Assembly (NCBI GenBank): GCA_046583195.1
Contig: JAYGCV010000021.1
Coordinates: 11,660-75,659, forward strand
Length of the DNA stretch: 64,000 nt
DNA from: Myxococcota bacterium
GTDB taxonomy: Bacteria > Myxococcota_A > UBA9160 > UBA4427
Reading direction: 5' to 3'
Below the pieces are notes generated by a model that made no database searches, was not told where the DNA came from, and was given only the letters and a program-made list of their open reading frames with translations. Position 1 is the stretch's first letter. Each line of letters starts with the position of its first letter. Position numbers and translations under genes: made by a program. Shown piece by piece: positions 1 through 18,793 of the stretch.

Positions 1-1982
1 TGCAGCAGCGCTTCGGCTCCGCGGTCCTGTCGCAGCGCGCCGTAGACCAGCCGACGCAACGGCGCCTTCGCCACAGGCTGCAGCGCCCGCGCCGCATGGT
101 CGGCTTCTGCCCCGAGCTCGTAGGCACCGAGTAGCGCGTAAAAGGCTCCCATCCGATCGAGCGCTTCGAAACGCCGGGCCGGGTCCGCGTGCCCCCGGTC
201 GCGCAGCCACTGGGGATACGCAGCGGGGAGCAGGCCACGATCGATCAACCAACCCGGAGCCTCGCGCAGCACGGCGTCGATTTCGAAGCCGCGACGCAAA
301 TCGAAGGGCACCCCCTCGCTTGCGTAGAAGCGCGCCACGCGCCCCAGGTTTTCGCGATTGCGCTCGCTGTCGCGCAGGTAGAGCGCGTGCCCGGGGCCGC
401 GAAAAATCGGCAGCCAACCGGGAACCCCCTCGAGGTGCGCGGTGGTGTAGATATGCTCGCCGAGCGCAGGAAAGCCGACGCCAAAGAAGACGTCGACTCC
501 GTAGCGATCGAGGGCCTCGAGTGCCGTCTCGCCCGGATCGACCTCGCGGCGATGGGCGATCCGAAAGTAATCGGCGAGGACTTTGCTCGGGTAGTGCTCG
601 GTGCGCCCATCGACGAAGGTCCGAAGCCGCGGCGCGAGTCGGTACCCGAGCAATCCACCCATCGTGTAGCGGTTGTAAAGGTTGCCTTCGAGTGCAGCCT
701 CCTGCAGAAAGCGAATGCCGGGCTCGTAGGTGCCGTGACGCACCCTCGATTCCGAGAAGTAGCCGGACAGCGAATCGGGGAGTCTCGAAAGGCGCGCGCG
801 GTAACCCGGATCGAAGGCCAGGGCGGCCACCAACAAAAGGGCAACCAGGCCCGCTGCCATCGCGGTCCCGCGCCTGCGAGGCGTGAGGCCTTCTTCGGAC
901 TGCGCCGCAAAGCGCAGGAGGAAGAGCAGCGGGAAAATGCCCATCCACAGGAAGCGCACCGAGACCAGAATGGCCACCGCTGACGCCGCGGCCAATCCCA
1001 GGTAGAGCGGGTCGAGGGTCCGCAGGTCGCAAGCTCGGCGACGCCAGGCAAAGCGAGCCACTCCGAAAATCGCCAGCGTGATCGCGGCGGCGTAGAGCCC
1101 ATCCGTGAGCGCCCAGGCAAGATCTCCGACCGGCGCCCCCCCCGCCAGCGCCGACGGCAGCACGAACGGATTGAAGGGAAACCACTCGTCGGCGATGTCC
1201 CAGATCCCGAACTCAGAAGACGAGGAGAAAAAGGTGAGATGCTGGTCGAAGCCACGCGGGTTGAGGAGCCCCGCCCCGATGATCGCCAACCCGGCCAGCG
1301 CCAAACGCTTTGCGCGCCGCCACTGCAGTGGCGCCCCGGGAAGCCGCGCCCACTTCAGGGCCGCGGCGTGCAGCAAGACGCCGAGCAGCGCCGCTACGAC
1401 CAGCGCCGGTGCCAGGCCGTAGAGGGAGTGGAAGTTGGCCCAGAGAAAAGCCACGAAAGCGGCGGCGGCGACGCGGCGCCAGGAGGGCGGGTCGCGGCCT
1501 TCAAAGAGCAGGAGGGTGAGCCCGAGTGTCGCGAGAATCGAAACCAGGTCGGGCCGCATCTGGACGAGGCGCGGCCAGGCGAGCAGCAGGAAAACCGTCG
1601 CCGCCAGCGCTGTCCACGCGGTCGGTGCCCTCGCACGCCGCAGCACAGCCACCGCAGCCAGCACGATCGCGAGGACCGCGACGCCGTGGAGCACGCGCAC
1701 GCCTCCGAGGCCGGTCCCCACGTCCACGGCGTGCATGGCGACCCCGAAGAGCCACTCGTGCTGGACGGGTGCTTCGGCGTGGGCCGTGTGGAGCATCGGG
1801 TCTGCTTCCGGCCACGGCCCTTCGGACGCGTAGGTTTCCCCCGCGCGCGCGTGGAACCAGAAATCGCTGGTGTCAATCGGGCCCGCCGCCACCCACTCGA
1901 CCATCAGCACCGCCGCGAAGAGCGCCCCCCACGCCACAACGCCGACATCGAGCCCGCCATCGCGGGCGCCGAGTGTTCTCAT
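1..1982 (-). CDS. polytopic membrane protein, GT-C-like glycosyltransferase candidate (3' end outside window)
   Basis: Absent from the ORF track because it has no stop inside the window. Reading the minus strand from ATG 1982..1980 gives MRTLGARDGGLDVGVVAWGALFAAVLMVEWVAAGPIDTSDFWFHARAG... I spot-checked codon by codon at 1982-1861 and 1082-1020 and found no stop; no other minus ORF is listed in this frame. The N-terminal ~400 aa are multi-TM (e.g. FLWANFHSLYGLAPALVVAALLGVLL, FLWMGIFPLLFLL) and the C-terminal part is soluble. An acidic D-x-x-D-F-W-F-H loop follows TM1. Track ORFs 189..983+, 245..1255- and 320..886+ here are Arg/Ser/Pro-rich shadows. Confidence 0.6.
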   Translation of the reverse strand, partial: MRTLGARDGGLDVGVVAWGALFAAVLMVEWVAAGPIDTSDFWFHARAGETYASEGPWPEADPMLHTAHAEAPVQHEWLFGVAMHAVDVGTGLGGVRVLHGVAVLAIVLAAVAVLRRARAPTAWTALAATVFLLLAWPRLVQMRPDLVSILATLGLTLLLFEGRDPPSWRRVAAAAFVAFLWANFHSLYGLAPALVVAALLGVLLHAAALKWARLPGAPLQWRRAKRLALAGLAIIGAGLLNPRGFDQHLTFFSSSSEFGIWDIADEWFPFNPFVLPSALAGGAPVGDLAWALTDGLYAAAITLAIFGVARFAWRRRACDLRTLDPLYLGLAAASAVAILVSVRFLWMGIFPLLFLLRFAAQSEEGLTPRRRGTAMAAGLVALLLVAALAFDPGYRARLSRLPDSLSGYFSESRVRHGTYEPGIRFLQEAALEGNLYNRYTMGGLLGYRLAPRLRTFVDGRTEHYPSKVLADYFRIAHRREVDPGETALEALDRYGVDVFFGVGFPALGEHIYTTAHLEGVPGWLPIFRGPGHALYLRDSERNRENLGRVARFYASEGVPFDLRRGFEIDAVLREAPGWLIDRGLLPAAYPQWLRDRGHADPARRFEALDRMGAFYALLGAYELGAEADHAARALQPVAKAPLRRLVYGALRQDRGAEALL

Positions 1983-2000
1983 GCCGGGGATGGTAGCCTG

Positions 2001-4280
2001 ATGACCGCGCGAGAGTCCCGCTCTGCGCTCGCGCCGGGGGGATCGAATACGAGCGTGCGAAATGCGACTTCGCAAGGGGCGGGCGCTCGGATCGGCGCAC
2101 CGCTCGGGCTGTTCCTGCTCTCGTTCGCAGTGCGGAGCCTCCCTTTCCCGACGGTCCGCGTCGGCGATTCCATCCACTTCCTCGGGATGGACGCCTATTA
2201 CCACATGCGCCGGATCGCCTACGGGCTCGAGCGCTTCCCCGAAACCCTCGTCTTCGACCCGTATATCAACTTCCCGGCCGGAGCCACGGCCATCTGGCCC
2301 CCCCTCTTCGACGTGCTCTGCACCTGGCTGGCCTTCCCCTTCCACGCCGCGGGGGGGATCGCCGCCGCGGAGCAGGCGCTCGTCTGGGTGCCGCCGCTCT
2401 TCGGGGCCGGAACCGTCGTCCTCGCCTATTGCCTCGCGCTGCGCTTCCTCGGCCTTTCGGCCGCGCTCTTTAGCGGCGTCTTCCTGGCGCTCTCCTCGGG
2501 CCACGCCTGGTATTCGCAGGTGGGGTTCCTGGACCACCACGCTGCAGTCGCCTTCGCGACCACAGCGCTGCTCTACGCGGGGATGGCGACTGCCCGCGAT
2601 CTCGCTCTCCCGAGCGCGAGGCTCACGCGGAGTGCCCTCGGCCTCGGGGTCGCCCTCGGCGCGAACCTTCTGCTCTGGCCCGGAAGTCTCCTCCACGTCG
2701 GAATCGTGATCGGCGCTCTCGGGGTGTGGGTGCTGGGCCAGCCCCAACCCGCCGCCGCCGAACGCGGTGCGCGCACGCTGGCCCTCGCCTCGCTGGTGGC
2801 GTTGCTCGTCGTTGCACCGTTCTCCTGGTCGAACGATTGGGCGCGCTGGGGAGCCTTTACGCCGACGGTCCTCTCGCGCTTCCAACCCTGGTTTTTTGCA
2901 GTGCTCGCGGTCGGCTTCGCGATTCTCACGCAATGCGCGAAAACGCGATTCGGTCCGCGCGGGAAACCACGCCCGCTGCCGGGGTTGCTCGTCGCGATCG
3001 GTCTTCTCGGGCTGTCTGCCGTCTGCCTGCCGGGCCTTCGCGAGGGCCTCGCCGATGCCTGGCAGTGGTTGGCGAAGGACGAGGCCTTCCAGGCCAGTGT
3101 GCTCGAATCGCGTCCACTCTTCTCGGTGCGCGGCCAGTGGTCGAGCCGTATTGCAGAAGGTCGGCTCTCCTACCTGATCTACCTGCTGCCGGCGACACTT
3201 CTCTACTTCGCTTACGCGGTCCGGAACCGCGAGGACCGCTCCGCCCTGCGTCTGCTGCTCATCTGGACCCTCGTGCTCGCCGCGGTGACCCTGCTCCAGC
3301 GGCGCTTCTTCAACAGCTTCTCGGTCGCACTCTCGTTGGTGATGGGATGGGGGTTCGCGGTGGCCGTGGGTCGGTCGCTCGGCACTCGGGCCAGCAGTCT
3401 GCGACGCATCGGGATCGCGGCGGCGGTGGGCCTCTCTGCGCTCTACCTGCTTTCGCCCATGGAGGCCTCGTTTCGCCCCTCGCTCGACAACCTGCAGCGC
3501 GCCTTCGCCGGCCGGCCGGTGCTAAAGCGAAGCGCTGGGCCCGACTTCGAAGCGCTCTTCGAAACCGCCGCCTGGATCCGCGAGCACACGCCGAGCACCC
3601 GGGGCTACCGCGACGCGTCGCTGCCTCCCGAGTACGGCCTGATCACGCTCCCCGGCATCGGACACCTCTTTGAGTACCGCGCCGAACGCCCCGTGGTCGC
3701 TGACAACTTTGGGGACGACATCGGCATCGAGAACTACGCACTCGTACGTCGGTACTTCTCGTCGCTCTCCCAGGAGGAGGCCGCCGAGATCGCCTCCGAT
3801 CTGCGCGCGCGCTACGTCGTCGCCACGGCTCCCGCTGCGCGCCAGCGTGGGGGGACCGGCATCCCGCTCCTCGAGCGCCTGGCGCACGGGGACGGCCAGG
3901 GCCTCGGCAGCCATCGCCTCGTCTTCGAGGCCTCGCGCCTCGGTGTGAACGCTCGGACCAACCGCCCTCCGCCCAAGGTCTTCGAGCATGTGCGCGGTGC
4001 CCGGGTCGAAGGCCTCGCGCCTGCCCAGCAGAACGTCAGCGCCCGAATCGACGTCGAAACGAATCGCGGTCGGCGCTTTGTCTACCGACAGAGCGTGCGC
4101 AGTGATGACCAGGGTCGGTACCGGCTGCAACTTCCCTACGCCAGCGAAGCGCGAAATGGCGCCTCGAAAACCGGATCGGCGTGGCGAATCGATTCCGGCG
4201 GTGCCTCGCACCCGCTGTCCATTCTCGAAAGCGCCGTGCGCACAGGGGGCGTTGTGCCGGGGCCCGATTTCGGTTCTTGA
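2001..4280 (+). CDS. STT3/AglB-like oligosaccharyltransferase homologue (GT-C), divergent
   Basis: Frame of track ORF 1239..4280. The first 254 codons are junk antisense to the upstream gene, and protein-like sequence begins at ATG 2001 (alternative GTG 2055). The multi-TM half carries FLGMDAYYHMRR (D codon at 2190) and GFLDHH (2532-2540). These resemble the first-loop D-x-x-Y-H-x-R motif and the D-x-H metal-site motif I recall for archaeal AglB/STT3. The soluble C-terminal ~250 aa includes ...AERPVVADNF... downstream of the expected WWDYG position. Confidence 0.75.
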   Translation: MTARESRSALAPGGSNTSVRNATSQGAGARIGAPLGLFLLSFAVRSLPFPTVRVGDSIHFLGMDAYYHMRRIAYGLERFPETLVFDPYINFPAGATAIWPPLFDVLCTWLAFPFHAAGGIAAAEQALVWVPPLFGAGTVVLAYCLALRFLGLSAALFSGVFLALSSGHAWYSQVGFLDHHAAVAFATTALLYAGMATARDLALPSARLTRSALGLGVALGANLLLWPGSLLHVGIVIGALGVWVLGQPQPAAAERGARTLALASLVALLVVAPFSWSNDWARWGAFTPTVLSRFQPWFFAVLAVGFAILTQCAKTRFGPRGKPRPLPGLLVAIGLLGLSAVCLPGLREGLADAWQWLAKDEAFQASVLESRPLFSVRGQWSSRIAEGRLSYLIYLLPATLLYFAYAVRNREDRSALRLLLIWTLVLAAVTLLQRRFFNSFSVALSLVMGWGFAVAVGRSLGTRASSLRRIGIAAAVGLSALYLLSPMEASFRPSLDNLQRAFAGRPVLKRSAGPDFEALFETAAWIREHTPSTRGYRDASLPPEYGLITLPGIGHLFEYRAERPVVADNFGDDIGIENYALVRRYFSSLSQEEAAEIASDLRARYVVATAPAARQRGGTGIPLLERLAHGDGQGLGSHRLVFEASRLGVNARTNRPPPKVFEHVRGARVEGLAPAQQNVSARIDVETNRGRRFVYRQSVRSDDQGRYRLQLPYASEARNGASKTGSAWRIDSGGASHPLSILESAVRTGGVVPGPDFGS

Positions 4281-4326
4281 AGATTCCTGCTGTACCGTCC
4301 GCTTTCGCAAGGGGGATTTCCCGTCG

Positions 4327-6372
4327 GTGAATGCCACGCGCCCCGATCAGAACGTGACGCGCTTCCTGCGGGCGCTCTGCGCCTCGGCGGCCATCCTGGC
4401 GGCGGGCCTGGTCGTCTGGGCCGTCGCCTTCTCGCCCGACTTTCCAATCCTTCCCCAGAGCGAAGGAGCGGCGTGGATCGCAGCGCCCGATCGGGTCATC
4501 ACCGGGGCCGTAACGACGTCGACCCGAGCGCCTCGGCGCGTGCGCTTCGTGCGCACAGTCGACCTCGAAGCCTCGCAGGTTCCCGGCGGGATCGAAGTGC
4601 ACGCACTGCGAAACTTCCGCCTCTCGATCAACGGCACCCCCGTGGCGCAGCGACTCGGCCCTGCGGGCGACGACCACGGGGCTGATTCCGGCACGGCGGC
4701 CGCGAGTAACTGGAAGCGCGCCACCCGGATCGACTCGCCCCCCTTCGTTCCCGGAAGGAACCGGATCGAAGTCGAGGTCTGGAATCCATCGGGGCCGCCG
4801 CTCCTCCGACTCGGGAGCCTTCGCAACGAGCGCGGCTTCGAGAGCGACGAGCGCTGGCAGGTCACCGAGGGGGCCGCGCCGCTGCGGCCCGTCCGCCTCG
4901 CGGACGACACGCTGCCCGCAGTGGCCACCCTGGCCGCAACGCCCGCCTGGGACGAACTCGCGAATCACCGCGGAATGCTCCTCGCGGCCGCGGCCTTCGG
5001 GGTGGTCGCCGCAGGCGCCCTCGCCCGGCCGGGTCGCAGTCGCAGTCGCGGCGGGTCGCACGGCGAGCGGGGATCAAGCGCTCTCATCGTCGGCCTCGGG
5101 ATCGCCGCTTTCTGGGTCTTTCTCTTCGTGGCACGCTTTCGCGAGCTGCCCCTCTACGCCGGCTTCGATGGCCCCCATCACCTCGAATACATCCGCTTCC
5201 TGGCAACCGAGGGGCGCCTTCCGCTCGCCACCGACGGCCCCGCGATGTACCACCCTCCGCTCTACCACGCACTCGGGGCGCTCCTGCGCTTCTTCTCGGG
5301 CGAGCATCCGGGAACCCCGATCCGACTGCTCTCCTTCGTCTCCGGCGGGGTGCAGATCTTCGTCGCCCACGGACTGGCGCGTCGGCTCTTCCCCGAGGAC
5401 GCGACGCAGAAGACACTCACGATTGCCGTCGCGGGGCTGCTCCCGCTGAACCTCTACATGTCCGCCTACCTGTCGAACGAGCCGCTCCACGCCGCCCTCA
5501 GCGCAGTCGTTTGCTTGATCGCAGTCGACCTCCTGCTGCTTCCGGGCTGGCCCCTGCGGCGCCTGCTTGCCCTGGGTATCGCGCTGGGGTTGGCGCTGCT
5601 GACGAAGGTGACGGCGCTCCTGCTCGGGCCGCTGCTTGGGCTCTTCCTTTTGGCGAAGGCACTTTTCGGGGAGGCCGCCCCCGTCCGCAGCTGGGCCGCT
5701 CGGGGTGGCACGCTGCTCGCACCGGTGCTCGTGATCGCGGCCGGCTTCTACCTGCGAAACTGGATCGAACTCGGTCGGCCCTTCGTGGGCAACTGGGATC
5801 TCCCCGGCGCCACCATCGGCTGGTGGCAATTTCCGGGTTTCCATACGGGCGAGTATTTTTTCAGCTTCGGGGAAGCCCTGCGCCGGCCCTTCTTTGCCGG
5901 CTTCCATTCGCTGGCCGACGGGCTCTACGCAACTCTCTGGAGCGACAGCCTGGTCGGCGGCGTCTCGGCCATCGTCCACCGCCACGCGCAGTGGAATTGG
6001 GGGTGGATGACGGTCCTGCCGGCACTCGCCTTCCCGGCGACCTGCGCAATGGCGCTTGGCACCGCGTCCCTCGCTCGTCGCTGTTTCGCCGAAGTCGCCA
6101 CACCGAGGCGCCTGGCCTTCGGATTTCTGGTAGCGACCGTCGCGACCTACCTCTTCGCCGTCGTCTTCATCAACCTGAGGCTTCCCTTCTACGCCCAGAC
6201 GAAATCGGCCTACCTCCTCGCGGTCGCCGCACCGCTTTCGTTGGCACTCGCCCGTGGCTTCGTCGTAGCCGATCGCAGGCTCGATCAGCCCGGCCTGCGC
6301 TGGATGCGATGGCTGCTGCACGGTTGGGGGGCCGCGTTCGTCGCGGCCATCGTGCTGGCGTTCGCGGGCTAA
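4327..6372 (+). CDS. PMT_2/ArnT-family GT-C glycosyltransferase with N-terminal extracytoplasmic domain
   Basis: Frame of ORF 3988..6372, with real sequence from GTG 4327 (alternative GTG 4354). It has one TM (FLRALCASAAILAAGLVVWAVAF), then a ~250-aa soluble domain, then a multi-TM core. The core contains FDGPHHLEYIRF...MYHPPLYH...LLTKVTALLL, typical of dolichyl/undecaprenyl-phosphate-sugar dependent PMT_2/ArnT-like enzymes. Confidence 0.7.
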   Translation: MNATRPDQNVTRFLRALCASAAILAAGLVVWAVAFSPDFPILPQSEGAAWIAAPDRVITGAVTTSTRAPRRVRFVRTVDLEASQVPGGIEVHALRNFRLSINGTPVAQRLGPAGDDHGADSGTAAASNWKRATRIDSPPFVPGRNRIEVEVWNPSGPPLLRLGSLRNERGFESDERWQVTEGAAPLRPVRLADDTLPAVATLAATPAWDELANHRGMLLAAAAFGVVAAGALARPGRSRSRGGSHGERGSSALIVGLGIAAFWVFLFVARFRELPLYAGFDGPHHLEYIRFLATEGRLPLATDGPAMYHPPLYHALGALLRFFSGEHPGTPIRLLSFVSGGVQIFVAHGLARRLFPEDATQKTLTIAVAGLLPLNLYMSAYLSNEPLHAALSAVVCLIAVDLLLLPGWPLRRLLALGIALGLALLTKVTALLLGPLLGLFLLAKALFGEAAPVRSWAARGGTLLAPVLVIAAGFYLRNWIELGRPFVGNWDLPGATIGWWQFPGFHTGEYFFSFGEALRRPFFAGFHSLADGLYATLWSDSLVGGVSAIVHRHAQWNWGWMTVLPALAFPATCAMALGTASLARRCFAEVATPRRLAFGFLVATVATYLFAVVFINLRLPFYAQTKSAYLLAVAAPLSLALARGFVVADRRLDQPGLRWMRWLLHGWGAAFVAAIVLAFAG

Positions 6373-6375
6373 CGC

Positions 6376-8043
6376 GTGGCCCACCAGCCCGCAGCCAGGC
6401 CCGCCCCCATGCGCTTTCGATTCGCCGTTTTCGCCATACTCGCTCTCGCAGCACTGTTGGCGGGGCGCTCACTCGAAGCGCCCGGCCTGTATTACGACGA
6501 GGCCGTACAGGCGCGACCCGCGCTCGAACTCGCCACGGGCCAGGTTCGCGCGGCCCCCCTTCCCGGGAGCCATTCGGTCTGGGTGGGCGGCACCCGGGTT
6601 CCGCTGATGACACAGCCGTACATGGGAGCCCTCAAATCCCAGGTCCTCGCGCTCCCGCTGGCAATTTCGGGGCCGGACGTCCGCGTGCTGCGCGCCGTCA
6701 CCCTCGCCATCGCACTCTTCGGGATTGCCGGCATCGCCTGCTTTGCGCGGCGGGCCTTTGGCAGCGCAATGGCACTCATCACGACGGGGCTCCTGGCCTC
6801 CGACCCGAGCGTTCTGCTGCTCGCCCGGCACGATTGGGGATCGTTTTCGATCTCGCTGCTGCTGCGGGCGGTAGTGCTCTTCTTCGGCTTCCGCTTCTTT
6901 GAGAGCCGACGGCCGTGGCACCTGCTGCTGGCGGGCTTCGCTCTCGGTCTCGGCTTCTACAACAAGGTCGATTTCGGGATCTTCGTGGTGGCCGTCGTGG
7001 CGGGGCTCCTGCTGGCGTTCCCCCGCGAATGCCTGCGCCTCGTGCGGGAACAGCGCGTCGCAGTCGTGTCGGGGCTGGGCGCAGTCGCGCTGGGAATCGG
7101 CCCGCTCTGGCTCCACCTGCGTGGCGTGCTCTCGAGACCCGGCGCCTTCTCGCACGAGGGCGAAATGGCGGCCAAGTTCGAGACCTTGTGGACCACCTTC
7201 GACGGCTCCCACTTCCATCGCCTGATGCAGAGCGGCGGCCTCTTCGACGACCTCGGCGGCATCGGCGACGCCGCCTCCGGTCCCTTCGTGGTCGTACTGA
7301 TCTTCGCAGCGACCTGGGCGGCCTTCCGCGCCTTCGCCCCGGGTGGCAGCAAAGCCGACCGCGGGACGCTGCGCTTCCTGCTGGTCGCAAACGCCTTCGG
7401 GATTGCCACCTACTTCCTGCTTCCCGGCGGCGAACGCATCCATCACGCGCAGAACCTCGTGCCGCTGCCGCAGCTCCTCGTCGCCGGGGTTCTCGTCCAC
7501 CTGGCCGGAATCGGGTCGGGGGCGCGACGCGGTCGCGTGCCGCGGGCCCTGGCCGCCGCCGGGGTCGCGATCTTCGTGGCGCTGCAAGTGGGCGTCTACG
7601 AGGAAACCCGCCGGGACTTCAGCGCCTCCGGCGGGAAGGGGCGCTGGTCGAACGCGATCGCCGACCTCGCCCGCGACCTCGCGGCCGAGCCTCTCGGAGT
7701 CACCAGCCTCGACTGGGGCTTCCAGGAACCGCTGGCCTTCTATGGCACCGCAGCCTCCCTGGACGAAGCGCACTGGCGCATTCTGGAGCCGCTCCGCCGG
7801 GGCAGAGCCTGGCGACAGCGCGGCGATGCCCAGCAACTCTACCTCCTGCACCTGCCGCCCTTCGATCGCTCGGGTTTCGGAAGCCCCTTCCTCGAAGCGG
7901 CGCGCGCACGGGTGAGCGAAGGCTTCGGCCAGATTCGATTCCATCGAGACGGCGATGGCGAGGTGGCATTTGTCAGCGTGCGCTTCGCCGGCGATCACCT
8001 GATCCACTACGACGGACGCTTTCGAATCGAGCGACTCCGCTAG
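6376..8043 (+). CDS. GT39/ArnT-like GT-C glycosyltransferase
   Basis: GTG 6376, 3 nt after the upstream stop (alternative ATG 6409). Signal-anchor TM followed by GLYYDEAVQ (the D-E loop-1 motif of PMT/ArnT-type GT-C enzymes). Multiple TMs follow (LGFYNKVDFGIFVVAVVAGLLL), then a soluble C-terminal ~130 aa. Confidence 0.7.
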   Translation: MAHQPAARPAPMRFRFAVFAILALAALLAGRSLEAPGLYYDEAVQARPALELATGQVRAAPLPGSHSVWVGGTRVPLMTQPYMGALKSQVLALPLAISGPDVRVLRAVTLAIALFGIAGIACFARRAFGSAMALITTGLLASDPSVLLLARHDWGSFSISLLLRAVVLFFGFRFFESRRPWHLLLAGFALGLGFYNKVDFGIFVVAVVAGLLLAFPRECLRLVREQRVAVVSGLGAVALGIGPLWLHLRGVLSRPGAFSHEGEMAAKFETLWTTFDGSHFHRLMQSGGLFDDLGGIGDAASGPFVVVLIFAATWAAFRAFAPGGSKADRGTLRFLLVANAFGIATYFLLPGGERIHHAQNLVPLPQLLVAGVLVHLAGIGSGARRGRVPRALAAAGVAIFVALQVGVYEETRRDFSASGGKGRWSNAIADLARDLAAEPLGVTSLDWGFQEPLAFYGTAASLDEAHWRILEPLRRGRAWRQRGDAQQLYLLHLPPFDRSGFGSPFLEAARARVSEGFGQIRFHRDGDGEVAFVSVRFAGDHLIHYDGRFRIERLR

Positions 8044-10964: not shown

Positions 10965-12587
10965 GTGGCTCACACCGCTCTCTTGCCCGCAAAGCCCCCC
11001 GAGCGTGCCCACGCCGACACGATTTCGAACGCACGGCGCTTTGGCCCCGTGGCACTCCTGGCCCTCGGTCCCTTCGCCTGGTTCTACGCCGAAAATCGCA
11101 GCGAATCGCTCGCCCCCGCGGACCTCTGGCTCTACGCACTGGCCACCGCCGCAATGGCACTCCTTGCCGCCCGGGTACTCGAAGCCTGCACGGGATCGAA
11201 AACCGGGCGCGTCCCCGCTGGCGTCGGCGTCGGCGTGCTCTTCTTCTTCAGCTACGCAGGGATCGAAGCGACGCTTTCGCGCGTCGGCGCAGGCCCCGAC
11301 ACCACCGCTGCCGCCAGCTGGGGGCTGTCGCTCCTCGGGATCTTCGTGGCAGGCCGTCTCGGCTCGAAGCCCGGATTCCAGCGCTTCCTGCTGGTCTTCG
11401 CGGCGGCAAACCTCGCGCTGGCCCTCGTCATGACGGGCGCAGCGGGACTGGACTCCGGGAGCGATGAGCTGTCTTTGAAGGCCCCGAGCGACCAACTCTT
11501 TGCGAACGACGTCTGGTCCGGCGCGGCGCAGCGCCGACCCGACGTCTATTGGATCGTCGTGGACAGCTACCCGAATCGCGAGCAATTGCTCGAAGCCTAC
11601 GGCTTTGACAACAGCGCATTTCTCGATGGCCTTCTCGAGCGGGGCTTCGCCATCGCAGAAGAGAGCTTTGCCAACTACAGCGAAACGCTGCTCTCGGTGC
11701 CTTCGACCCTCGAGATGGAATACATCTTCGACGAGGAAGACCCCGTCTACGAGGAGAAGCGCGGCGGCAACTGGGTGCGGCGCCGCGGGCGCACGCGCTC
11801 TTCGGTCAACGAGGCGGTCGCCGGGGTGAACCGCAGCGTTTCGTTTTTTCGGCAACTCGGTTACCAATATCTCCACTTTGACGGCGGCGGCTTCCAGATC
11901 ACGCGCTGTCAGGGTTTCGAAGATCTCTGCCTCGAGGCGGAGGTTCCCGGACTCTCCGAACTCGAACGCCAACTCGTCGCGATGACGCCCGCCTCGCGCT
12001 GGGCCCACACCTCCAGCGCGGTGCAGCAGTGGCGCAAGCCCGTGTCCCCCAGCGCGTCGGGGACCGGCATCCCGGAACTCAGGGCCCAGCTCGCGTCCAC
12101 GCCACTCCCCGAGCCATTCTTTCTCTATGCCCACATCGCGTCACCGCATCGCCCCTACTGGAATGACGCCGATTGCAACCTGCTTCCCCCGGCGGCCCCT
12201 CGCCGGGGGAATCGCCACTTCGTGGCGCAGCTCCGCTGCGTCAACCGCCACCTCGACGATCTCCTCGATTCGATCGAGGCGCGCGACCCCGAGGCCATCG
12301 TGCTGCTCGCTGCCGACCACGGACCCCGCCTGAGCGTTCGCAAAGGCACCTCCCTCTACGAGCACTCGAGACGGCAGATCCGCGAGAGCCTCGGCATCCT
12401 CCTGGCCCTGCGAGCGCCAGCCGCCTGCCTCGAATCCTTCCCGGCGGACCTCTCGCCAGTCAACAGTCTGCGACTCGTATTTGCCTGCATCGGAGGCGAG
12501 GCACCGCGCCTGCTGCCGAACCGCCATTACCTCGCGCGTCCCGACTCTCCCGAACGAGGCCTCATCCGGCGGGTGCGCGTCGATTGA
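10965..12587 (+). CDS. membrane-anchored sulfatase/LtaS-like (alkaline phosphatase superfamily) protein
   Basis: GTG 10965. About 5 N-terminal TM helices (FGPVALLALGPFAWFYA..., GVGVGVLFFFSYAGI..., FLLVFAAANLALALVMTG). An extracytoplasmic domain follows with YWIVVDSYPN, LLSVPST, FLYAHIASPHRPY and LLAADHGP. This architecture resembles LtaS/EptA-type phospho-transferases. Confidence 0.6.
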   Translation: MAHTALLPAKPPERAHADTISNARRFGPVALLALGPFAWFYAENRSESLAPADLWLYALATAAMALLAARVLEACTGSKTGRVPAGVGVGVLFFFSYAGIEATLSRVGAGPDTTAAASWGLSLLGIFVAGRLGSKPGFQRFLLVFAAANLALALVMTGAAGLDSGSDELSLKAPSDQLFANDVWSGAAQRRPDVYWIVVDSYPNREQLLEAYGFDNSAFLDGLLERGFAIAEESFANYSETLLSVPSTLEMEYIFDEEDPVYEEKRGGNWVRRRGRTRSSVNEAVAGVNRSVSFFRQLGYQYLHFDGGGFQITRCQGFEDLCLEAEVPGLSELERQLVAMTPASRWAHTSSAVQQWRKPVSPSASGTGIPELRAQLASTPLPEPFFLYAHIASPHRPYWNDADCNLLPPAAPRRGNRHFVAQLRCVNRHLDDLLDSIEARDPEAIVLLAADHGPRLSVRKGTSLYEHSRRQIRESLGILLALRAPAACLESFPADLSPVNSLRLVFACIGGEAPRLLPNRHYLARPDSPERGLIRRVRVD

Positions 12588-12672: not shown

Positions 12673-14310
12673 ATGTCCAGCAACGCACAGCGCCCCCCGA
12701 TTCTCATCGGCCTGGTCCTACCCCTGGCCGTCGGTGCGCTCGTCCGTTGCGTCGGAATTCGAGGGCAGGTTCTCACCGACGACGAACTCCACACGGTCCA
12801 CGCGGCGCTCTCGATGCCGCTCTCGCAGATCTTCCGGACGTGGACCTTTGGCGGTGCCGACTACAGCGTCCCGCTCACCGCCCTGCATCGCGCCCTGATG
12901 GACTTCGGCATGGTGTTCACGGAACTCGGCTTTCGCTGGCCGCCACTCCTGGCCGGACTGCTCGCGGTGGTACTGCTGCCTCGATTCGCCCGGCACCGGA
13001 TCGGCTCCCGGGCCGCGCTGGCGCTCGCCTGGCTGATCGCATGCTCGCCAATGCTCGTTGCCTACAGTCGAATCATTCGCCCCTACATGGTGACGGGCCT
13101 GTGCGTCGGCGTGGCGGCGCTGCTCTTTGACCGCTTCCGGCAGGGGCGCTCGCGCTGGGACGCGGCCGGCTTCGTGCTTGCGTCGGTGCTCGCGATCTAC
13201 AGCCATCTCGGAGCCGCCCCCGCCATCGCCGGGATGCTGCTCTTTGGCGCGGCGCACGCGCGCCAGAAGGCCCGGGACGAACTCGCGATCGCCGGGCTGG
13301 CCGCCATCACCTTCCTACTCGCGGCCCTGCTCGTGGCCCCGGGCCTCGACTCGATCATCGAAGTCGTCCGCACGACGCGAGACGGCCACTGGCCCTCGGG
13401 GTCCGTGTGGTCCGATACCGGGCGCCTGCTCGTGGGGACACCCTCCGTCGGCGTTTCGCTCCTCGCTGGGGCGATCTGGCTTCGGGGCCTGGTGTGGCTG
13501 ATCCGAGACCAACGGGATTTCGCCGGTTTGCTCGTGTCGACCCTCGCGGCCCAGGCGATCGGCTTGTTGCTGCTGTCGCCGGATCGGCTGGAAGAACGCC
13601 TGGTGCTCACGCGCTACCTCGTGGTCGTTCTGCCGCTGGCCCTCGTTCCGCTCGCGGTGGGGACGATGCATCCCTGGTGGCCAGGGGCACCGACGTGGGG
13701 TCGCCGGGGCGAAGCGTGCGTGGCCGCCGGGCTACTGGTCCTCCTGGTTGCGAGCGGACCCCTGCGCCTTGACCCGAAGGCCATGGGATCCTTCGCCCAC
13801 GCGCCTGCATCCCTCGATTTCGTGGGCATTGGAAATCGCATCGCGAAATCACAGCTACCCGATTTCTACCGCGAGCTCGCGCGCTCACCAGAGCCCGCGC
13901 CGCTGATCGAGTACCCGTGGCAGAACCTCTCCTACCACGTCTTTGACGCGTATCAGCGCCACCACCACCAGCCGCTGCAGATCGCGAGTGTCCTCGACCG
14001 GAGCGATGAATTGCGGATTGCCCTCCGCAGCCGCGTCGAGCCCCAGCCCGAGGCGATGCTTCGCAGCCGCGCCCGCCACATCGTGGTGCACCTCGATCTG
14101 CGCGGCGAAGCACTGCGGATCGAGAGCAGCGACCCGAGCTTCGAAAAATGGCTGCGCGCCCGACGAAATCTGTGGACCCCGTTGCAGAGAGCCGGCACCG
14201 GCATGGCTCGGCGTCTCGAGGGCGAATGGGGCGAACCCGATTACCGCGACGAACACATCGCTGCCTGGGACCTGGAGCGGATTCGCGCCACTTCGGGGGG
14301 CATGCCGTGA
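12673..14310 (+). CDS. polytopic membrane protein, GT-C-like glycosyltransferase candidate
   Basis: Frame of ORF 12481..14310 with ATG 12673 (GTG 12670 adjacent). TM1 is followed by GQVLTDDELHTVHAA, an acidic loop-1 motif. At least 9 further hydrophobic segments follow. The soluble C-terminal ~170 aa includes EYPWQNLSYHVFDAYQRHHHQPL. Confidence 0.55.
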   Translation: MSSNAQRPPILIGLVLPLAVGALVRCVGIRGQVLTDDELHTVHAALSMPLSQIFRTWTFGGADYSVPLTALHRALMDFGMVFTELGFRWPPLLAGLLAVVLLPRFARHRIGSRAALALAWLIACSPMLVAYSRIIRPYMVTGLCVGVAALLFDRFRQGRSRWDAAGFVLASVLAIYSHLGAAPAIAGMLLFGAAHARQKARDELAIAGLAAITFLLAALLVAPGLDSIIEVVRTTRDGHWPSGSVWSDTGRLLVGTPSVGVSLLAGAIWLRGLVWLIRDQRDFAGLLVSTLAAQAIGLLLLSPDRLEERLVLTRYLVVVLPLALVPLAVGTMHPWWPGAPTWGRRGEACVAAGLLVLLVASGPLRLDPKAMGSFAHAPASLDFVGIGNRIAKSQLPDFYRELARSPEPAPLIEYPWQNLSYHVFDAYQRHHHQPLQIASVLDRSDELRIALRSRVEPQPEAMLRSRARHIVVHLDLRGEALRIESSDPSFEKWLRARRNLWTPLQRAGTGMARRLEGEWGEPDYRDEHIAAWDLERIRATSGGMP

Positions 14311-15815
14311 CGCGCGACCTCCTCGCGAAAAAAACAGAGACCCGGCTGACAGGCTGGGTCGCAATCGCCGCCTTCTGGTTCTTCGGCGTCTTTAGCCACG
14401 GCCACTTCATGGGTTCGGATGAAGTCGCGGTCTTCGAAATGACGCGATCCCTCGCCGAAGAGGGGAACCTGAGCGTCCCGGAGATGCAGCACACCGCGAT
14501 CGGAATCGACGGTCGACGCCACAGTTTCTTCAGTCCCGGGCAATCGGTCCTGGCACTTCCCTTCTACCACGCCGGCCGCCTCGCCGAGCGCTGGCTGCCG
14601 CTGGATGCTCAGCGCGTATTGCGCGGCCCGCCCAGCGGCTACGGCAACTACACCTTCGGAGGCGATCTCTCCATTGCCTTCGCCAGCCTCTTTTCGACGC
14701 TGGCCGGCGGCATCCTGATGGCGGTGTTCTTTCGCTTCGAACGGCGCCTCGGGGCCTCGCGCCAGAGCGCCCTCAAAGCGACCGCGCTGGTCGCCTCTTC
14801 GACCTACGTGCTGATGCTCTCGACCTACTTCCTGCGGCACGTCGCCGAGGCAGCTTGCCTGCTCGGCGCGATCCTCTTCGTGTTTCGGTACGCCCACGGC
14901 AGCGGCCCGCGCGATCTTCTGGCGGCTTCGGCGCTGGCCTCGGCGGCCTTCCTGCTCCGGGTCCCGGCAGGCTTCGCGGCCCCGGTCCTCGCCGGCTACA
15001 TCGGCTGGGCCATCTGGCTGCGGAGCGATGGGCTGCGCCGCCATCGAGACGCCGCTCGCGCCGTACTCTGCGTGCTGCTGCCGCTGGCGCTGGCGCTGGC
15101 TGCCTTTGGCTTCGTGAACCAACTGCGCTGGGGAAACCCCTTCGGCTCCCCGATGGTCGACCAGTGGTCGCGACTCGGAAACCCGATCCAGATTGGGCTG
15201 CGCGGCTTCCTCCTGAGTCCCGGCGCGAGCCTCTTCGTCTACTCGCCGCTGCTCCTGCTCTTGCCGTTCACCTTTCCGGTCTTGTGGCGGAGTTGGCGCG
15301 CGGAGGCCATCGCCTTTGGGGCACTCTGTCTCTCGCTCTTGCTCATCTACTCGAAATTCGACGGCTGGGAGGGACTCTGGTCGGCGCCCGGGCCGCGCTA
15401 CCTCTTCTTCGCCACGCCCCTGCTCCTGCTGTCTCTGGGACCGTGGCTCGACCGGCCCAGTTCGAAGTTGCGAAGCGGCACACTCGTCGTGCTTGCAGCG
15501 CTTGGCTTCTTCGTGCAACTCGTTTCGACCGTGGTGCATTGGGGATCGGTTCCCGCGCTGGCGAACTACGAAGGTTTTGAAACCGGCTGGGAATTCCTCT
15601 TCGTGGTGGACCGCGCACCGGTGGTGGAAATGGCTCGTCTCTTCTTTTCCGGGGGGCCCTACGACCCCTGGTTGATCCGCCTGGGAGAGGGCTGGCTCGG
15701 GGTGAATGGACGCCCGGGCCTGGCCTTGGCGCTCTTCGCAGCGTGGGCCGCCGGTCTCGGGGCGTTGGTGGTGGCGATCCGTCGAGAATGCCAACGCCTG
15801 GACTCGGTGGACTGA
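14307..15815 (+). CDS. polytopic membrane protein, GT-C (GT39/PMT_2-like) glycosyltransferase candidate
   Basis: Frame of ORF 14148..15815. GTG 14307 overlaps the upstream TGA (GTGA, 14307-14310). WVAIAAFWFFGVFSHGHFMGSDEVAVFEMTRSL is TM1 plus an S-D-E loop motif as in ArnT/PMT-like enzymes. The remainder is multi-TM. Confidence 0.6.
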   Translation: MTRDLLAKKTETRLTGWVAIAAFWFFGVFSHGHFMGSDEVAVFEMTRSLAEEGNLSVPEMQHTAIGIDGRRHSFFSPGQSVLALPFYHAGRLAERWLPLDAQRVLRGPPSGYGNYTFGGDLSIAFASLFSTLAGGILMAVFFRFERRLGASRQSALKATALVASSTYVLMLSTYFLRHVAEAACLLGAILFVFRYAHGSGPRDLLAASALASAAFLLRVPAGFAAPVLAGYIGWAIWLRSDGLRRHRDAARAVLCVLLPLALALAAFGFVNQLRWGNPFGSPMVDQWSRLGNPIQIGLRGFLLSPGASLFVYSPLLLLLPFTFPVLWRSWRAEAIAFGALCLSLLLIYSKFDGWEGLWSAPGPRYLFFATPLLLLSLGPWLDRPSSKLRSGTLVVLAALGFFVQLVSTVVHWGSVPALANYEGFETGWEFLFVVDRAPVVEMARLFFSGGPYDPWLIRLGEGWLGVNGRPGLALALFAAWAAGLGALVVAIRRECQRLDSVD

Positions 15816-15818
15816 GCC

Positions 15819-17252
15819 GTGGCGCTGCGAAGGATCGCGCTGGGCATCGTCGCTTTGGTGGCGGCACTTTCGATCGCCTACGCCGTGGCGCTGCGCGTTC
15901 CGAGTCCGGTCTCGCTGAACTACGTCGAGGGCTTCGCGCAGATCGACGCGCAGCGCGTTGCGGCGGGAAGCGCCCTCTACCGGAACCCGGCCTCCCCGCC
16001 GTGGACGTTGCACGTCTACACGCCCCTCTACACTTTTGCGGTCGCCGCGATCACCAGCGACTTCGGGAGTTATGCACCGGGTAGACTCCTTTCTCTTGGC
16101 GCGCTGCTCGCCACCGCGCTGCTCATGGGTGCCAGTGGAGCGCGGAGAGCGGGCTGGGTCGCCTGGATCATCGCGGGCCTCTACCTGTCACAGCCGCTGC
16201 TCACCCAATGGGGCGCAGTGGTGCGTCCAGACAACCTCGCGGTCTTCTTCTCCGCCGTCGGCGTCGTCTGCGTCGAACGCCTTTCGGGGCTGCGCGGTCT
16301 ATTGCTGGCGGCCGTCTTCTTCCTGCTGGCGCTGGCCACAAAGCAGAGCGTCGGTCTGGGGCTGTTGGCGGCGATCCTCTTCCTCCTCTTGCAGGCACCC
16401 AGGCGCGCCCTGGTCCTCGTCGCCCTGGTGGCAGTGGGCGCCCTCTCAACGACCCTTGCACTCGAAGCGCTCTCTGGGAACTGGTTCATCTTCCATACCT
16501 GGACCGCGAACCTCGCCCCCTTCTCGCTGGAAAAGAGCCTGCACCTCGGCGGGATCTTTCTCCGCGAACACGTTCCCCTCGTTGCGGCCGCCTTCGCGGT
16601 GCTGATCGCCTGCGGATTGCAGCGCCGCCTCTCGATCCACGCCCTCTGGTTCGCTGGGGCAGCGGTCTCGACGGTCGCCTCGGGACGGATTGGGGCCGAC
16701 ACCAATTATTTCCTCGAGAGCCTGGCGGCGGCGGGTTTCCTGCTGGCGAACGAGTGGCCGGTCCTCCGGGAGCGTTTTCGCGCGCGGGCCCCGGGCTGGC
16801 TCGAAACGGCGCTGCTCACCGTCGCCATCGCGATGGCGCTGTTCCAGGCAAGGACCCTGCACGCGAATTACGCCTGGATCGAGGGCGCCGAAACGCGCTT
16901 TCTCGAGGCCCGGGATCGGATGCGGGAGAAACCGGGAGCCATTCTCTCCGACGACGCTGGACTGCTCGTGTCTCTCGATCGACCGCTCGTCTATCGACCG
17001 TTCGCAATGACCCAACTCGTCTACGCCGGCGACTTCGATCCCACGCAACTCGTGCAGATGCTCGAGTCGGGCGAGTTCGCCTTCGTCGTCTTCGAAGCGG
17101 TCCCAGGCCGGGGGCCATCGCCCGCACGCTACACTGCGGAAATGCGCGCAGCGCTCGCACGGAACTACCGAAGCGAAGGTCGCTATCGCACCTTTTCCAA
17201 CTTCGAGGTCTACGCTCCGCGCAGGCCCGGGAGCCTGGATCCGGCCCTGTGA
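15819..17252 (+). CDS. polytopic membrane protein, GT-C-like (family unassigned)
   Basis: GTG 15819, 3 nt after the upstream stop. About 10-11 hydrophobic segments, then a soluble C-terminal ~120 aa (LSDDAGLLVSLDRPLVYRPFAMTQLVYAGDFDPTQLV...). No family motif recognised with confidence. Assignment rests on architecture and context. Confidence 0.5.
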   Translation: MALRRIALGIVALVAALSIAYAVALRVPSPVSLNYVEGFAQIDAQRVAAGSALYRNPASPPWTLHVYTPLYTFAVAAITSDFGSYAPGRLLSLGALLATALLMGASGARRAGWVAWIIAGLYLSQPLLTQWGAVVRPDNLAVFFSAVGVVCVERLSGLRGLLLAAVFFLLALATKQSVGLGLLAAILFLLLQAPRRALVLVALVAVGALSTTLALEALSGNWFIFHTWTANLAPFSLEKSLHLGGIFLREHVPLVAAAFAVLIACGLQRRLSIHALWFAGAAVSTVASGRIGADTNYFLESLAAAGFLLANEWPVLRERFRARAPGWLETALLTVAIAMALFQARTLHANYAWIEGAETRFLEARDRMREKPGAILSDDAGLLVSLDRPLVYRPFAMTQLVYAGDFDPTQLVQMLESGEFAFVVFEAVPGRGPSPARYTAEMRAALARNYRSEGRYRTFSNFEVYAPRRPGSLDPAL

Positions 17253-18793
17253 TTCGCGAGTGGGGAGGCGGGCTCGCAGTGAGCCGCGCAACGCTGGGGG
17301 TGGCCGCTGTAGGGCTCCTCTTCGCGGGCCTCGTGATCGACCGCGCGTGGGTCTCCGACGACGCCTACATCACCTTTCGCAGCGTCGACAACTTCCTCGC
17401 GGGCCACGGTCTGCGCTGGAACGTCGCCGAACGCGTACAGGCCTACACCCACCCGCTGTGGATGTTTCTCGTGGCCGGCGCCACTGCACTCTCCGGGGAC
17501 GTCCACGGTGCTTCGCTCGGCCTCTCGCTCGGCCTGTCTTTCGCAGCCGTGTGGGTGCTCGCCCGGCGCGTGGCCCGAGGGCCGATGGCGGCCCTCGTAG
17601 CCCTCGCACCGCTGATCGCGTCGACTGCCTTCCTCGATTACTCGACTTCGGGTCTCGAAAATCCCCTGCTCCATTTTCTGCTCGCGGCCTTCTTGTGGCG
17701 ACTCTTCTCGGACCGCGAGCCCGAAACCCGGCTGCTGCACCTCTCGCTGCTCGTCTCCGCATTGGTGCTCACGCGGCCCGATGCCGTGCTGCTGGTCGGA
17801 CCGGTTCTTGCGGCGCTGGGCTACCGGGGGCGGGGTCAACGCCCACTCGCTGGCATTGCGCTGGGCCTGCTTCCACTCGCTGCCTGGGAGTGTTTCTCGG
17901 TCGTCTACTACGGCTTCCCGCTCTCCAACACGGCCTACGCGAAGCTCGGGACCGGCATCGAAGCCGCGGCGCTGTGGCAGCAGGGGGGCCTTTACTTCCT
18001 CGACTCTCTTCGGAGCGACCCCGCAACGCTCGTCTTTACCGGACTCGGGATCGGCTGGGCGATAGGGCGCGGAAAGAGCAGCGATCGCCTGCTCGCCACC
18101 GGCGCAATCCTCTACCTGCTCTACGTGGCGACGATCGGCGGCGACTTCATGCGCGGCCGCTTCCTGGCAGCGCCCCTCTTCCTGGCCTGTGGCCTGCTGG
18201 CGCGCGTCCCCATAGCGAGGGTTCGCAGCGTCGCGGTCGTCTTCGTCGCGGCATTCCTGTTGGCGGCAATCGGGACGAGTCCGCCCTGGAACCCTCGCGG
18301 CCATCATCAGATCGGGATCGGGCCTTCCCCTGCGCGCCACGGGATCGTCGATGAGCGCGCGCTCTACGCGGAACACACGGGGCTGATGGAACGGCTCACC
18401 GGCCTCGGCCACCCGTCGCAACATCCCTACGCAATCCGCGGTCTCAGTCTCCGACGAACCGGCGGCAGAGGCGGTGCCGGCCAGGCCCTCGGCCTCTACG
18501 GCTACTACGCCGGGCCGGGGGTACACATTCTCGACGTCGTCGCCCTCACCGACCCCCTCCTGGCACGACTCCCGGCGCGCTCCGGCCGTTGGCGGATCGG
18601 CCACTTCGAAAGAGCGATCCCACCTGGCTATGCCCGCAGCCTCGACGAGGGTCAGAACCGGATCACCGACCCTGCACTGGCCGATTACTATGAAGACCTG
18701 CGACGCGTGACCCGCGGGCCCCTCTTCAGCGTTCCGCGTTGGCGCGCCATCGGGCGCCTCAACTTCGAGGCGGCGCCCGAAACCGCGAAATAG
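17249..18793 (+). CDS. polytopic membrane protein, GT-C-like glycosyltransferase candidate (DD loop motif)
   Basis: Frame of ORF 16208..18793. GTG 17249 overlaps the upstream TGA (GTGA, 17249-17252). TM1 is followed by RAWVSDDAYITFRSVDNFLAGHGLRWN. From memory this D-D-x-[FY]-I-[ST]-F-R loop is found in arabinofuranosyl/other GT-C-type transferases. Multi-TM core with a soluble C-terminal ~150 aa. Confidence 0.6.
   Translation: MIREWGGGLAVSRATLGVAAVGLLFAGLVIDRAWVSDDAYITFRSVDNFLAGHGLRWNVAERVQAYTHPLWMFLVAGATALSGDVHGASLGLSLGLSFAAVWVLARRVARGPMAALVALAPLIASTAFLDYSTSGLENPLLHFLLAAFLWRLFSDREPETRLLHLSLLVSALVLTRPDAVLLVGPVLAALGYRGRGQRPLAGIALGLLPLAAWECFSVVYYGFPLSNTAYAKLGTGIEAAALWQQGGLYFLDSLRSDPATLVFTGLGIGWAIGRGKSSDRLLATGAILYLLYVATIGGDFMRGRFLAAPLFLACGLLARVPIARVRSVAVVFVAAFLLAAIGTSPPWNPRGHHQIGIGPSPARHGIVDERALYAEHTGLMERLTGLGHPSQHPYAIRGLSLRRTGGRGGAGQALGLYGYYAGPGVHILDVVALTDPLLARLPARSGRWRIGHFERAIPPGYARSLDEGQNRITDPALADYYEDLRRVTRGPLFSVPRWRAIGRLNFEAAPETAK

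Follow-up and report, generated by a model that had tools for sequence, protein, structure and literature searches.

What do the eleven consecutive genes encode that fill the first 18,793 nucleotides of a 64-kb stretch of an uncultured Myxococcota contig (JAYGCV010000021.1, positions 11,660 to 75,659, assembly GCA_046583195.1; this whole stretch is called the window below), and could they serve a single pathway? A first-pass annotation had described the island as eight GT-C-type membrane glycosyltransferase-like proteins and three alkaline-phosphatase (AP) superfamily proteins facing the periplasm. Our analysis agrees with this description and adds that the second gene (g2), which had not been singled out, encodes an archaeal-type homologue of the AglB/STT3 oligosaccharyltransferase (OST). 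On balance, we favour the view that the island belongs to a conserved, clade-specific, OST-centred envelope glycosylation locus of uncultured marine Myxococcota that would act wholly on the periplasmic face of the membrane. Its role is probably to build or decorate a cell-surface glycan outside the cytoplasm. The genes are, in window positions:

g1, 1 to 1982, minus strand: membrane protein with a GT-C fold and a C-terminal domain of TPR-like helices, truncated by the start of the window.
g2, 2001 to 4280, plus strand: archaeal-type AglB/STT3 oligosaccharyltransferase homologue with intact catalytic residues and LPGIG in place of WWDYG.
g3, 4327 to 6372, plus strand: PMT_2-type GT-C with an extra ~180-aa extracytoplasmic domain between the first transmembrane (TM) helix, TM1, and the core.
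g4, 6376 to 8043, plus strand: PMT_2-type GT-C (ArnT/PMT-like) with YYDE after TM1.
g5, 8040 to 9443, minus strand: secreted sulfatase-fold enzyme, possibly a lipoprotein, with Thr at the nucleophile position (R-T-V-P-S-H).
g6, 9433 to 10842, minus strand: sulfatase-fold lipoprotein (canonical lipobox, LLGC) whose nucleophile is Thr (T-T-A-P-S-H).
g7, 10965 to 12587, plus strand: membrane-anchored protein with a weakly AP-superfamily-like C-terminal domain and a layout that resembles LtaS/EptA.
g8, 12673 to 14310, plus strand: PMT_2-type GT-C with TDDELH after TM1.
g9, 14307 to 15815, plus strand: probable GT-C (LA_3751/LA_3752-like) with GSDE, the weakest of the eight.
g10, 15819 to 17252, plus strand: GT-C-fold protein (ArnT/ALG12/GT87-like) with an invariant Y35-x-E37 after TM1.
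g11, 17249 to 18793, plus strand: AftB-like GT-C with a catalytic DD motif (WVSDDAYITFR).

All eleven open reading frames (ORFs) translate without internal stops at these coordinates, in a window of ~67% G+C. The packing is operon-like, as had been noted: 3-nt gaps separate g3 from g4 and g9 from g10, GTGA start/stop overlaps lie at 14307 and 17249, g6 and g5 overlap by 11 nt, and the convergent g4 and g5 overlap by 4 nt. The start/stop codon overlaps imply units of co-translation. The full length of g1 is 748 aa. Gene starts are uncertain for g4 (544 aa), g6 (440–500 aa) and g7 (512–540 aa), because metagenome gene callers disagree on identical metagenome contigs. Only 18 nt (window 1983–2000) lie between the starts of the divergently oriented g1 and g2. 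As this spacer is too short for two ordinary promoters, one start may be miscalled, or the promoters lie inside coding sequence.

The protein encoded by g2 matched the Pfam families STT3 (41.5 bits, cutoff 24.5) and AglB_L1 (67.1 bits), and came just under the cutoff of AglB_core-like (26.2 bits, cutoff 27). It also matched the NCBIfam model TIGR04154 (archaeo_STT3) with an E-value of 5e-94, at 316 bits and thus below the cutoff of 450. The best PDB match of the g2 family profile was AglB-L of A. fulgidus (3WAJ, E 1e-54). In the alignment, g2 residues D64, D178-H179-H180, E369 and R435 correspond to D47, D161/H163, E360 and R426 of the A. fulgidus enzyme, and all are invariant across 15 g2 homologues. 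As g2 keeps the metal- and phosphate-binding catalytic residues, it should, judging from these residues, remain able to transfer a glycan that is carried on polyprenyl phosphate. At the WWDYG position, most of 95 g2 homologues have P-W-x-x-G or L-[PS]-G-x-G, including L-S-G-N-G. The WWD of WWDYG reads the hydroxyl of the +2 Ser/Thr in the N-X-S/T sequon. The absence of WWDYG from g2 points to an acceptor other than this sequon, and the acceptor is thus probably not a classical one.

Like archaeal AglB (A. fulgidus AglB-L, 3WAJ/3WAK; TIGR04154), g2 has an STT3 core, an AglB core and an AglB_L1 peripheral domain, as well as the Asp of external loop 1, the D-x-H motif, the Glu of external loop 5 (the TIXE Glu) and the Arg. 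Unlike archaeal AglB, g2 has a bacterial host, a degenerate WWDYG and a score below the TIGR04154 cutoff, and its companions are Thr-type AP enzymes and many GT-Cs in place of the cytoplasmic Agl transferases. Identical g2 proteins were found on 13 metagenome contigs. The homologues come from Myxococcota, Myxococcales or Deltaproteobacteria metagenome-assembled genomes (MAGs), with some from Planctomycetota or Binatia and none from cultured species. In a genome scan, the nearest archaeal matches were from Archaeoglobaceae. This affinity is consistent with a published placement of the bacterial Stt3 homologues inside the Euryarchaeota, following horizontal transfer (PMC4973528).

What accompanies g2? 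The products of g5 and g6 matched the Pfam Sulfatase family (PF00884) with E-values of 6.7e-44 and 4.3e-53, respectively, and are paralogues of each other (phmmer E 1e-59). The N-terminal signal of g5 ends in AFFAC, a probable lipobox, and both proteins have a signal or lipoprotein peptide only, without an N-terminal multi-TM domain. Neither carries the formylglycine motif C/S-x-P-x-R: the residues are T-V-P-S-H in g5 and T-A-P-S-H in g6, and in the alignment of g6 with the S1 sulfatases 4UPH and 7STT a Thr occupies the formylglycine position and a His the Arg position. The same holds for the sulfatase-fold genes that neighbour AglB elsewhere. Among 66 aligned segments (~20 loci, duplicates included), all but three have the Thr nucleophile, and only one is a true C-x-P-x-R sulfatase. 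In the AP superfamily, Thr nucleophiles mark phosphoryl-transfer enzymes (NPP, EptA, LtaS). As g5 and g6 have Thr instead of Cys/Ser, they are predicted to be phosphoryl-transfer enzymes and are unlikely to be sulfatases, which lends support to the earlier guess that these enzymes handle phospho substituents. The locus thereby flags a clade of 'sulfatases' that, on these residues, would be unable to act as such.

The third AP-type protein, g7, reached 26.6 bits for Sulfatase (cutoff 25) over residues 371–458 only, and hydropathy places ~3–5 TM helices in its first ~160 aa, so that a membrane domain precedes a marginal catalytic-domain match. A phmmer search of PDB sequences gave no significant match for g7, and its S-V-P-S-T was read from the sequence, without a supporting alignment. 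The Campylobacter pgl cluster likewise contains a bacterial STT3-family enzyme (PglB) among glycosylation genes, and the AP-superfamily enzyme EptC also decorates the Campylobacter N-glycan. The two clusters differ in that pgl consists mostly of cytoplasmic GT-B/GT-A transferases and the PglK flippase with a single GT-C, and in that PglB keeps WWDYG.

Next, we considered whether the other membrane proteins are glycosyltransferases. All eight membrane proteins, g2 included, are polytopic with 8–11 TM helices each by hydropathy. In seven of them the first TM helix is followed by a long loop, the exception being g9, in which no helix was found before residue 123. Conserved acidic residues follow TM1 in g1 (D40), g2 (D64) and g10 (E37), and the motifs YYDE (g4), TDDELH (g8), GSDE (g9) and SDDAY (g11) were read from the sequence. 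For seven of the eight, a known GT-C enzyme was clearly matched by hidden Markov model (HMM) or by fold; the matches of g9 were sub-threshold only. The assignment of all eight to the GT-C type therefore stands, with g9 as its weakest member. The first-pass annotation had also called the eight proteins paralogues. In this it was mistaken: phmmer found no pairwise similarity among them, which means that they represent eight different GT-C families. GT-C enzymes use polyprenyl-phosphate-linked donors at the outer face of the membrane (reviewed in PMC11127046). Going by the behaviour of the family, the eight proteins would use polyprenyl-phosphate-linked sugar donors.

Three of the proteins belong to PMT_2, with scores of 31.7 bits for g3, 43.7 bits for g4 and 27.8 bits for g8 (cutoff 26.1). 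In g3 and g4, hydropathy shows 11 and ten TM helices, respectively, and Agl23 was matched weakly by g4 and with an E-value of 1e-5 by g8. The g9 protein, with eight TM helices, scored 22.2 bits for PMT_2 and was also sub-threshold for PMT; it matched NF047440 (LA_3751/LA_3752 'putative glycosyltransferase') with an E-value of 1.9e-15, below the cutoff of that model. Searches of PDB sequences with phmmer returned nothing useful for g3, g4, g8 and g9.

For g1 and g10 the evidence is structural. g1 had no Pfam or NCBIfam match. The AlphaFold2 (AF2) model of the full-length protein (P0122) has a pLDDT of 91.6, and its top Foldseek matches in the PDB were yeast STT3 (7OCI_F, E 1e-6) and PglB (5OGL, E 1.8e-6), with AftA, AglB, AftB and ArnT as further matches. 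In the g1 family, the loop that follows TM1 contains an invariant D40. This large family has no Pfam model and comprises at least 226 clusters at 50% identity (E<=1e-30). Alignment of the g1 family profile with those of the g10 and AglB families by hhalign gave probabilities below 5%. As sequence profiles fail to tie g1 to GT-C, this link comes from the AF2 model. g10 likewise had no Pfam match, while some of its homologues match PMT_2 or GT87. Its AF2 model (pLDDT 90.9) is closest in the PDB to ArnT (5F15/5EZM, Foldseek E 1e-7, TM-score 0.63–0.65), followed by ALG12, ALG9, STT3, AglB, Emb, PimE and Pmt4. A GT-C fold can now be assigned to two sizeable unannotated families, those of g1 and g10.

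An alternative is that the island is a toolbox for the remodelling of lipid A, the lipopolysaccharide (LPS) core or other envelope lipids. Its enzymes would work independently, like ArnT and EptA, place sugars and phospho substituents on LPS or another lipid to tune surface charge, and be co-located for shared regulation rather than as a single assembly line. Besides the ArnT match of g10, this is suggested by the membership of g3, g4 and g8 in PMT_2, the Pfam family that includes ArnT, by weak matches of g5 and g6 to EptA/MCR phosphoethanolamine transferases (E 1e-9 to 1e-5), and by an ArnC-like GT2 protein at a related locus (L079, see below). The PMT_2/ArnT fold and Thr-nucleophile AP chemistry are indeed shared with the ArnT/EptA system. 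However, g5 and g6 are soluble lipoproteins that belong by sequence to the S1 sulfatase clade rather than to the five-TM EptA type, whose N-terminal membrane domain they lack, and there are no ArnA–D genes. Moreover, no LPS-modification system is known to use the conserved partner AglB/STT3, eight different GT-Cs far exceed any known lipid A or core modification set, and the TPR domains on g1 and its neighbours suggest protein partners. We therefore consider lipid remodelling unlikely.

How far is the island conserved? Gene order across related loci, which had been proposed as a check, is kept at 40–70% amino-acid identity in L081, L007 and L087, and this makes a chance arrangement unlikely. 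Collinearity at this level extends to two further lineages of marine Myxococcota. L081 (AglB 49% identical) is collinear from the upstream TPR genes through g8 at 40–60% identity, L007 (AglB 58% identical) is collinear for g2–g9 without g6, and L087 carries g5, g7, g8, g9, g10 and g11. The orthologues of g3 are collinear in L007 and L081, those of g4 occur in L007, L081, L018 and L049, and those of g8 in L007, L081, L087 and L018. Identities are 49–55% for g7 (L007, L081, L087), 63% for g9 (L007, L087) and 59% for g11 (L087). It could still be argued that the genes are unrelated hydrophobic ORFs of a high-GC genome, since such DNA gives many long spurious ORFs and three of the eight membrane proteins have no Pfam match. 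We regard this explanation as refuted by the high-confidence AF2 models with a GT-C fold, the hundreds of homologues and the gene order kept at such identities.

In more distant loci the full set dissolves and a core persists, both in distant Myxococcota and in Planctomycetota. This core, an AglB-like protein with a Thr-type AP enzyme and a PMT_2 protein, is found in the Planctomycetota locus L083 and also in L082, L018 and L049, and L080 has AglB and PMT_2 alone. Sulfatase-fold genes lie within 10 kb of AglB in 17–18 of 72 loci. The greedy ORF clustering of neighbours, which over-extended starts and lost some genes, served for rough counts only. In L079, the cluster contains five sulfatase-fold genes, a GT2 gene, a methyltransferase, TPR proteins and two PEP-CTERM proteins.

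The first-pass annotation had compared the island with the Emb/Aft series of mycobacterial arabinan synthesis. One of its genes supports this comparison. g11 is homologous to mycobacterial AftB (PDB 9DLF, E 2e-20) over most of its length, and the catalytic DD motif is kept (g11 WVSDDAYITFRSV, AftB WIADDGLIVLRTV); against NF041481 it had an E-value of 2.3e-24 and 85 bits, far below the equivalog cutoff of 1050. The locus could accordingly be a lipoglycan or polysaccharide line of the mycobacterial lipomannan/lipoarabinomannan or arabinan type, in which successive GT-Cs would use polyprenyl-phosphate-mannose and -pentofuranose to build and branch a lipid-anchored polymer that resembles mannan or arabinan. 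The GT87 matches of some g10 homologues (the PimE/Mpt family) and the PimE and Emb folds among the g10 matches agree with such a line, as does a g1 homologue at locus L086, in the same MAG as L079, which is operonic with a phosphomannose isomerase gene and lies between this gene and PMT_2, methyltransferase and sulfatase-like genes. The company of this g1 homologue also speaks for the OST-centred reading. On the other hand, only one of the eight GT-Cs is related to the Emb/Aft enzymes, the host belongs to another phylum, and neither DprE1/DprE2/UbiA-type decaprenyl-phospho-arabinose genes nor Ppm1-type genes were found among the window ORFs tested. Carbohydrate-binding C-terminal domains of the Emb type were not detected, and the AglB-like enzyme and its pairing with Thr-type AP enzymes across phyla would be left unexplained. 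A line of this type is thus unlikely. The Emb/Aft analogy applies to g11, and for the locus as a whole the OST-centred reading fits better because of the conserved partnership of AglB with a Thr-type AP enzyme and PMT_2.

The island also reaches beyond the window. The cluster spans ~27 kb and extends 8 kb beyond the window start, where g1 is followed in order by a 550-aa polytopic protein, a 1035-aa fused MFS/spermidine synthase (NF037959) and two ~800-aa TPR proteins, all of which are kept in L081. The 550-aa protein had no family match in domain scans, and phmmer against PDB sequences returned nothing useful; from its topology it is a probable ninth GT-C of the cluster. At the right end, the island is bordered by UvrD, followed by GlmS, GlmU and HflX. 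The neighbouring genes referred to here and below are:

UvrD/PcrA-type helicase, window 18831 to 21035, minus strand: borders the island.
GlmS and GlmU, window 21163 to 24394, minus strand: start 2.4 kb downstream of the island.
RmlA-like gene, window 53988 to 55052.
Fused MFS/spermidine synthase (NF037959), L001 2864 to 5971, upstream of the window: large gene.
Fused MFS/spermidine synthase (NF037959), window 29328 to 32153, plus strand: large gene.

The upstream fused MFS/spermidine synthase gene is kept beside AglB in L081, and its L079 counterpart overlaps the start of AglB. The distant locus L082 also has a UvrD/PcrA-type helicase gene (13233–15332), situated ~1 kb downstream of its AglB gene. 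GlmS and GlmU, housekeeping enzymes of UDP-GlcNAc synthesis, are encoded by the only sugar-nucleotide genes close to the island, and the only other one in the window is the RmlA-like gene.

Where would the sugar donors be made? Practically every ORF of appreciable size in the 64 kb was scanned against Pfam, and none matched a GT-A/GT-B transferase, Wzx/Wzy, an ABC flippase or an initiating transferase, in line with the earlier statement that cytoplasmic glycosyltransferases and flippases are missing. Among the window ORFs tested there was no Pfam match to GT2 or GtrA, and tblastn of the GT2 proteins of L018 and L079 against the window gave no significant match (best E 0.27). In L018, a GT2 gene inside the cluster is closest to archaeal AglJ/Dol-P-hexose transferase (E 4e-33), and in L079 the GT2 gene inside the cluster is closest to PgfS/ArnC (E 2e-58). 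As relatives hold GT2 genes of the polyprenyl-phosphate-sugar synthase type inside the cluster, the missing cytoplasmic machinery is a matter of the layout of this genome and no evidence for a donor-independent mechanism. The absence that had been reported is thus true of the window and is not a feature of the system. A related bacterial principle is three-component periplasmic glycosylation by a GtrA flippase, a GtrB polyprenyl-phosphate-sugar synthase and a Gtr* GT-C (PMC11127046). The present locus resembles it in its presumed polyprenyl-monophosphate sugars and in the GtrB/ArnC/AglJ-class GT2 genes beside the GT-Cs of L018 and L079, and differs in that the window has eight GT-Cs without GtrB or GtrA, together with an OST and AP enzymes.

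The GT2 protein of L079 also resembles PgfS of the Streptococcus protein O-glycosylation system, which bears on a further alternative. The GT-Cs may be independent protein O- or C-glycosyltransferases (PMT/TMTC/TMEM260-like), each of which attaches a single sugar to its own secreted or PEP-CTERM-type proteins, with the AglB-like protein as one more such enzyme. PMT_2 membership, the TPR-like C-terminal domain of g1, the PMT_2–TPR fusions in L018 and the two PEP-CTERM proteins that adjoin the AglB cluster in L079 are all compatible with this. However, the window and its 8-kb upstream flank yielded neither PEP-CTERM proteins nor an exosortase, the conserved AP-superfamily partners would have no explanation, and the fact that the set is collinear as a whole across lineages suggests a common product. 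We consider independent protein glycosyltransferases quite unlikely.

The two PEP-CTERM proteins of L079 are encoded in tandem (1919–3874) beside the cluster of AglB, sulfatase-like and GT2 genes in the Myxococcota bin PL23a_bin.83, and in L086 an EpsI gene lies near the g1 homologue. These genes hint at an exosortase-substrate link, which was not seen in the window. Together with the association of TIGR04154 with archaeosortases, the L079 genes led us to consider such a link for the locus, and we keep it as an anecdote only: a scan for PEP-CTERM motifs was negative for the window, L001, L007, L018, L081, L082 and L083.

From the observed family and fold assignments, active-site residues, topology and synteny, we infer the donors, acceptor, order of steps and product of the OST-centred pathway as follows. 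GT2 synthases encoded elsewhere in the genome would charge polyprenyl phosphate with sugars. Each of the seven further GT-Cs (three PMT_2, one AftB-like, one LA_3751-like, one ArnT/ALG-like and one STT3-fold-like with TPR), as well as the probable eighth upstream, would then add a different sugar from a polyprenyl-monophosphate-sugar donor, either onto the lipid-linked glycan before transfer or onto the product after transfer. g2 would move the glycan from its polyprenyl-phosphate carrier to a non-classical acceptor, and the Thr-type lipoproteins g5 and g6, with g7, would attach phosphodiester-linked substituents to this glycan or remove them from it.

Such a scheme has parallels in N-glycosylation. 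In the lumen of the endoplasmic reticulum (ER; ALG3/9/12/6/8/10 with STT3) and in Haloferax (AglB with AglS), several GT-Cs that use polyprenyl-phosphate monosaccharides share their side of the membrane with an STT3-family transferase. The likeness lies in several different GT-Cs beside an STT3-family enzyme, and ALG12 and ALG9 are among the best fold matches of g10. The present locus differs from these pathways in that there is no sequence-level ALG orthology, the cytoplasmic half is unlinked and the acceptor motif is lost, and its AP-superfamily enzymes have no counterpart in them. By analogy, these two pathways and the three-component Gtr systems would be closer models than Emb/Aft. In a stronger form, the locus could be a bacterial counterpart of ER-lumen N-glycosylation, in which a lipid-linked oligosaccharide is extended by the GT-Cs, trimmed or phospho-decorated by the AP enzymes and transferred en bloc by AglB to a non-sequon acceptor, with g1 possibly representing a second, unrecognised oligosaccharyltransferase family. 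We hold this stronger form to be improbable.

Several points weigh against the OST-centred reading itself. With no donor synthase, flippase or initiating transferase in the 64 kb, it is synteny that links the genes into a single pathway. Distant g10 homologues are found alone, at contig ends or in unrelated contexts, so that at least some members can work independently. The loss of WWD could mean that g2 is catalytically diverted or inactive on proteins, instead of having a new acceptor. The assignments of g7 and g9 come from marginal or sub-threshold HMM matches, that of the probable ninth GT-C comes from topology, and the members are known from metagenomes and sequence alone.

Is such a locus new? 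All of its components are from known superfamilies. In the literature searched, we found no description of AglB in Myxococcota or of this gene set, which agrees with the first impression that the arrangement was not a described system. Nor did this literature contain an archaeal-type AglB that has a degenerate WWDYG and is surrounded by eight or nine different GT-Cs, conserved Thr-type sulfatase-fold partners or a frequent fused MFS/spermidine synthase neighbour. To our knowledge, work on bacterial STT3-family enzymes has been confined almost entirely to PglB of Campylobacterota and Desulfovibrio. The present locus represents a separate, archaeal-derived AglB lineage that is widespread in uncultured marine Myxococcota and occurs in MAGs of Planctomycetota as well. 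Its acceptor motif is altered, and its consistent partners are PMT_2 and a sulfatase-fold enzyme of the Thr type. If active, it would provide a new acceptor specificity for single-subunit oligosaccharyltransferases, of interest for glycoengineering, and a bacterial case of multi-step glycan assembly wholly outside the cytoplasm.

The remainder of the window contains several features of separate interest. A multihaem cytochrome (34689–35360, plus strand), a 719-aa outer-membrane beta-barrel (35369–37528, minus strand) and a second multihaem cytochrome (37509–38435, minus strand) are encoded together, and this arrangement (34689–38435) looks like a porin-cytochrome electron conduit. In a 1201-aa ORF (39800–43405, minus strand), a Melibiase-like segment is joined to an MtnX-like HAD phosphatase at the C terminus; this may be a fusion or an over-extended ORF. 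The ORF of the HflX GTPase (24257–26401, plus strand) has an N-terminal extension of ~320 aa before the conserved domains, and its start may be miscalled. Finally, the window encodes a bacterial homologue of the TANGO2 family (46719–47516, minus strand, E 8.5e-30).

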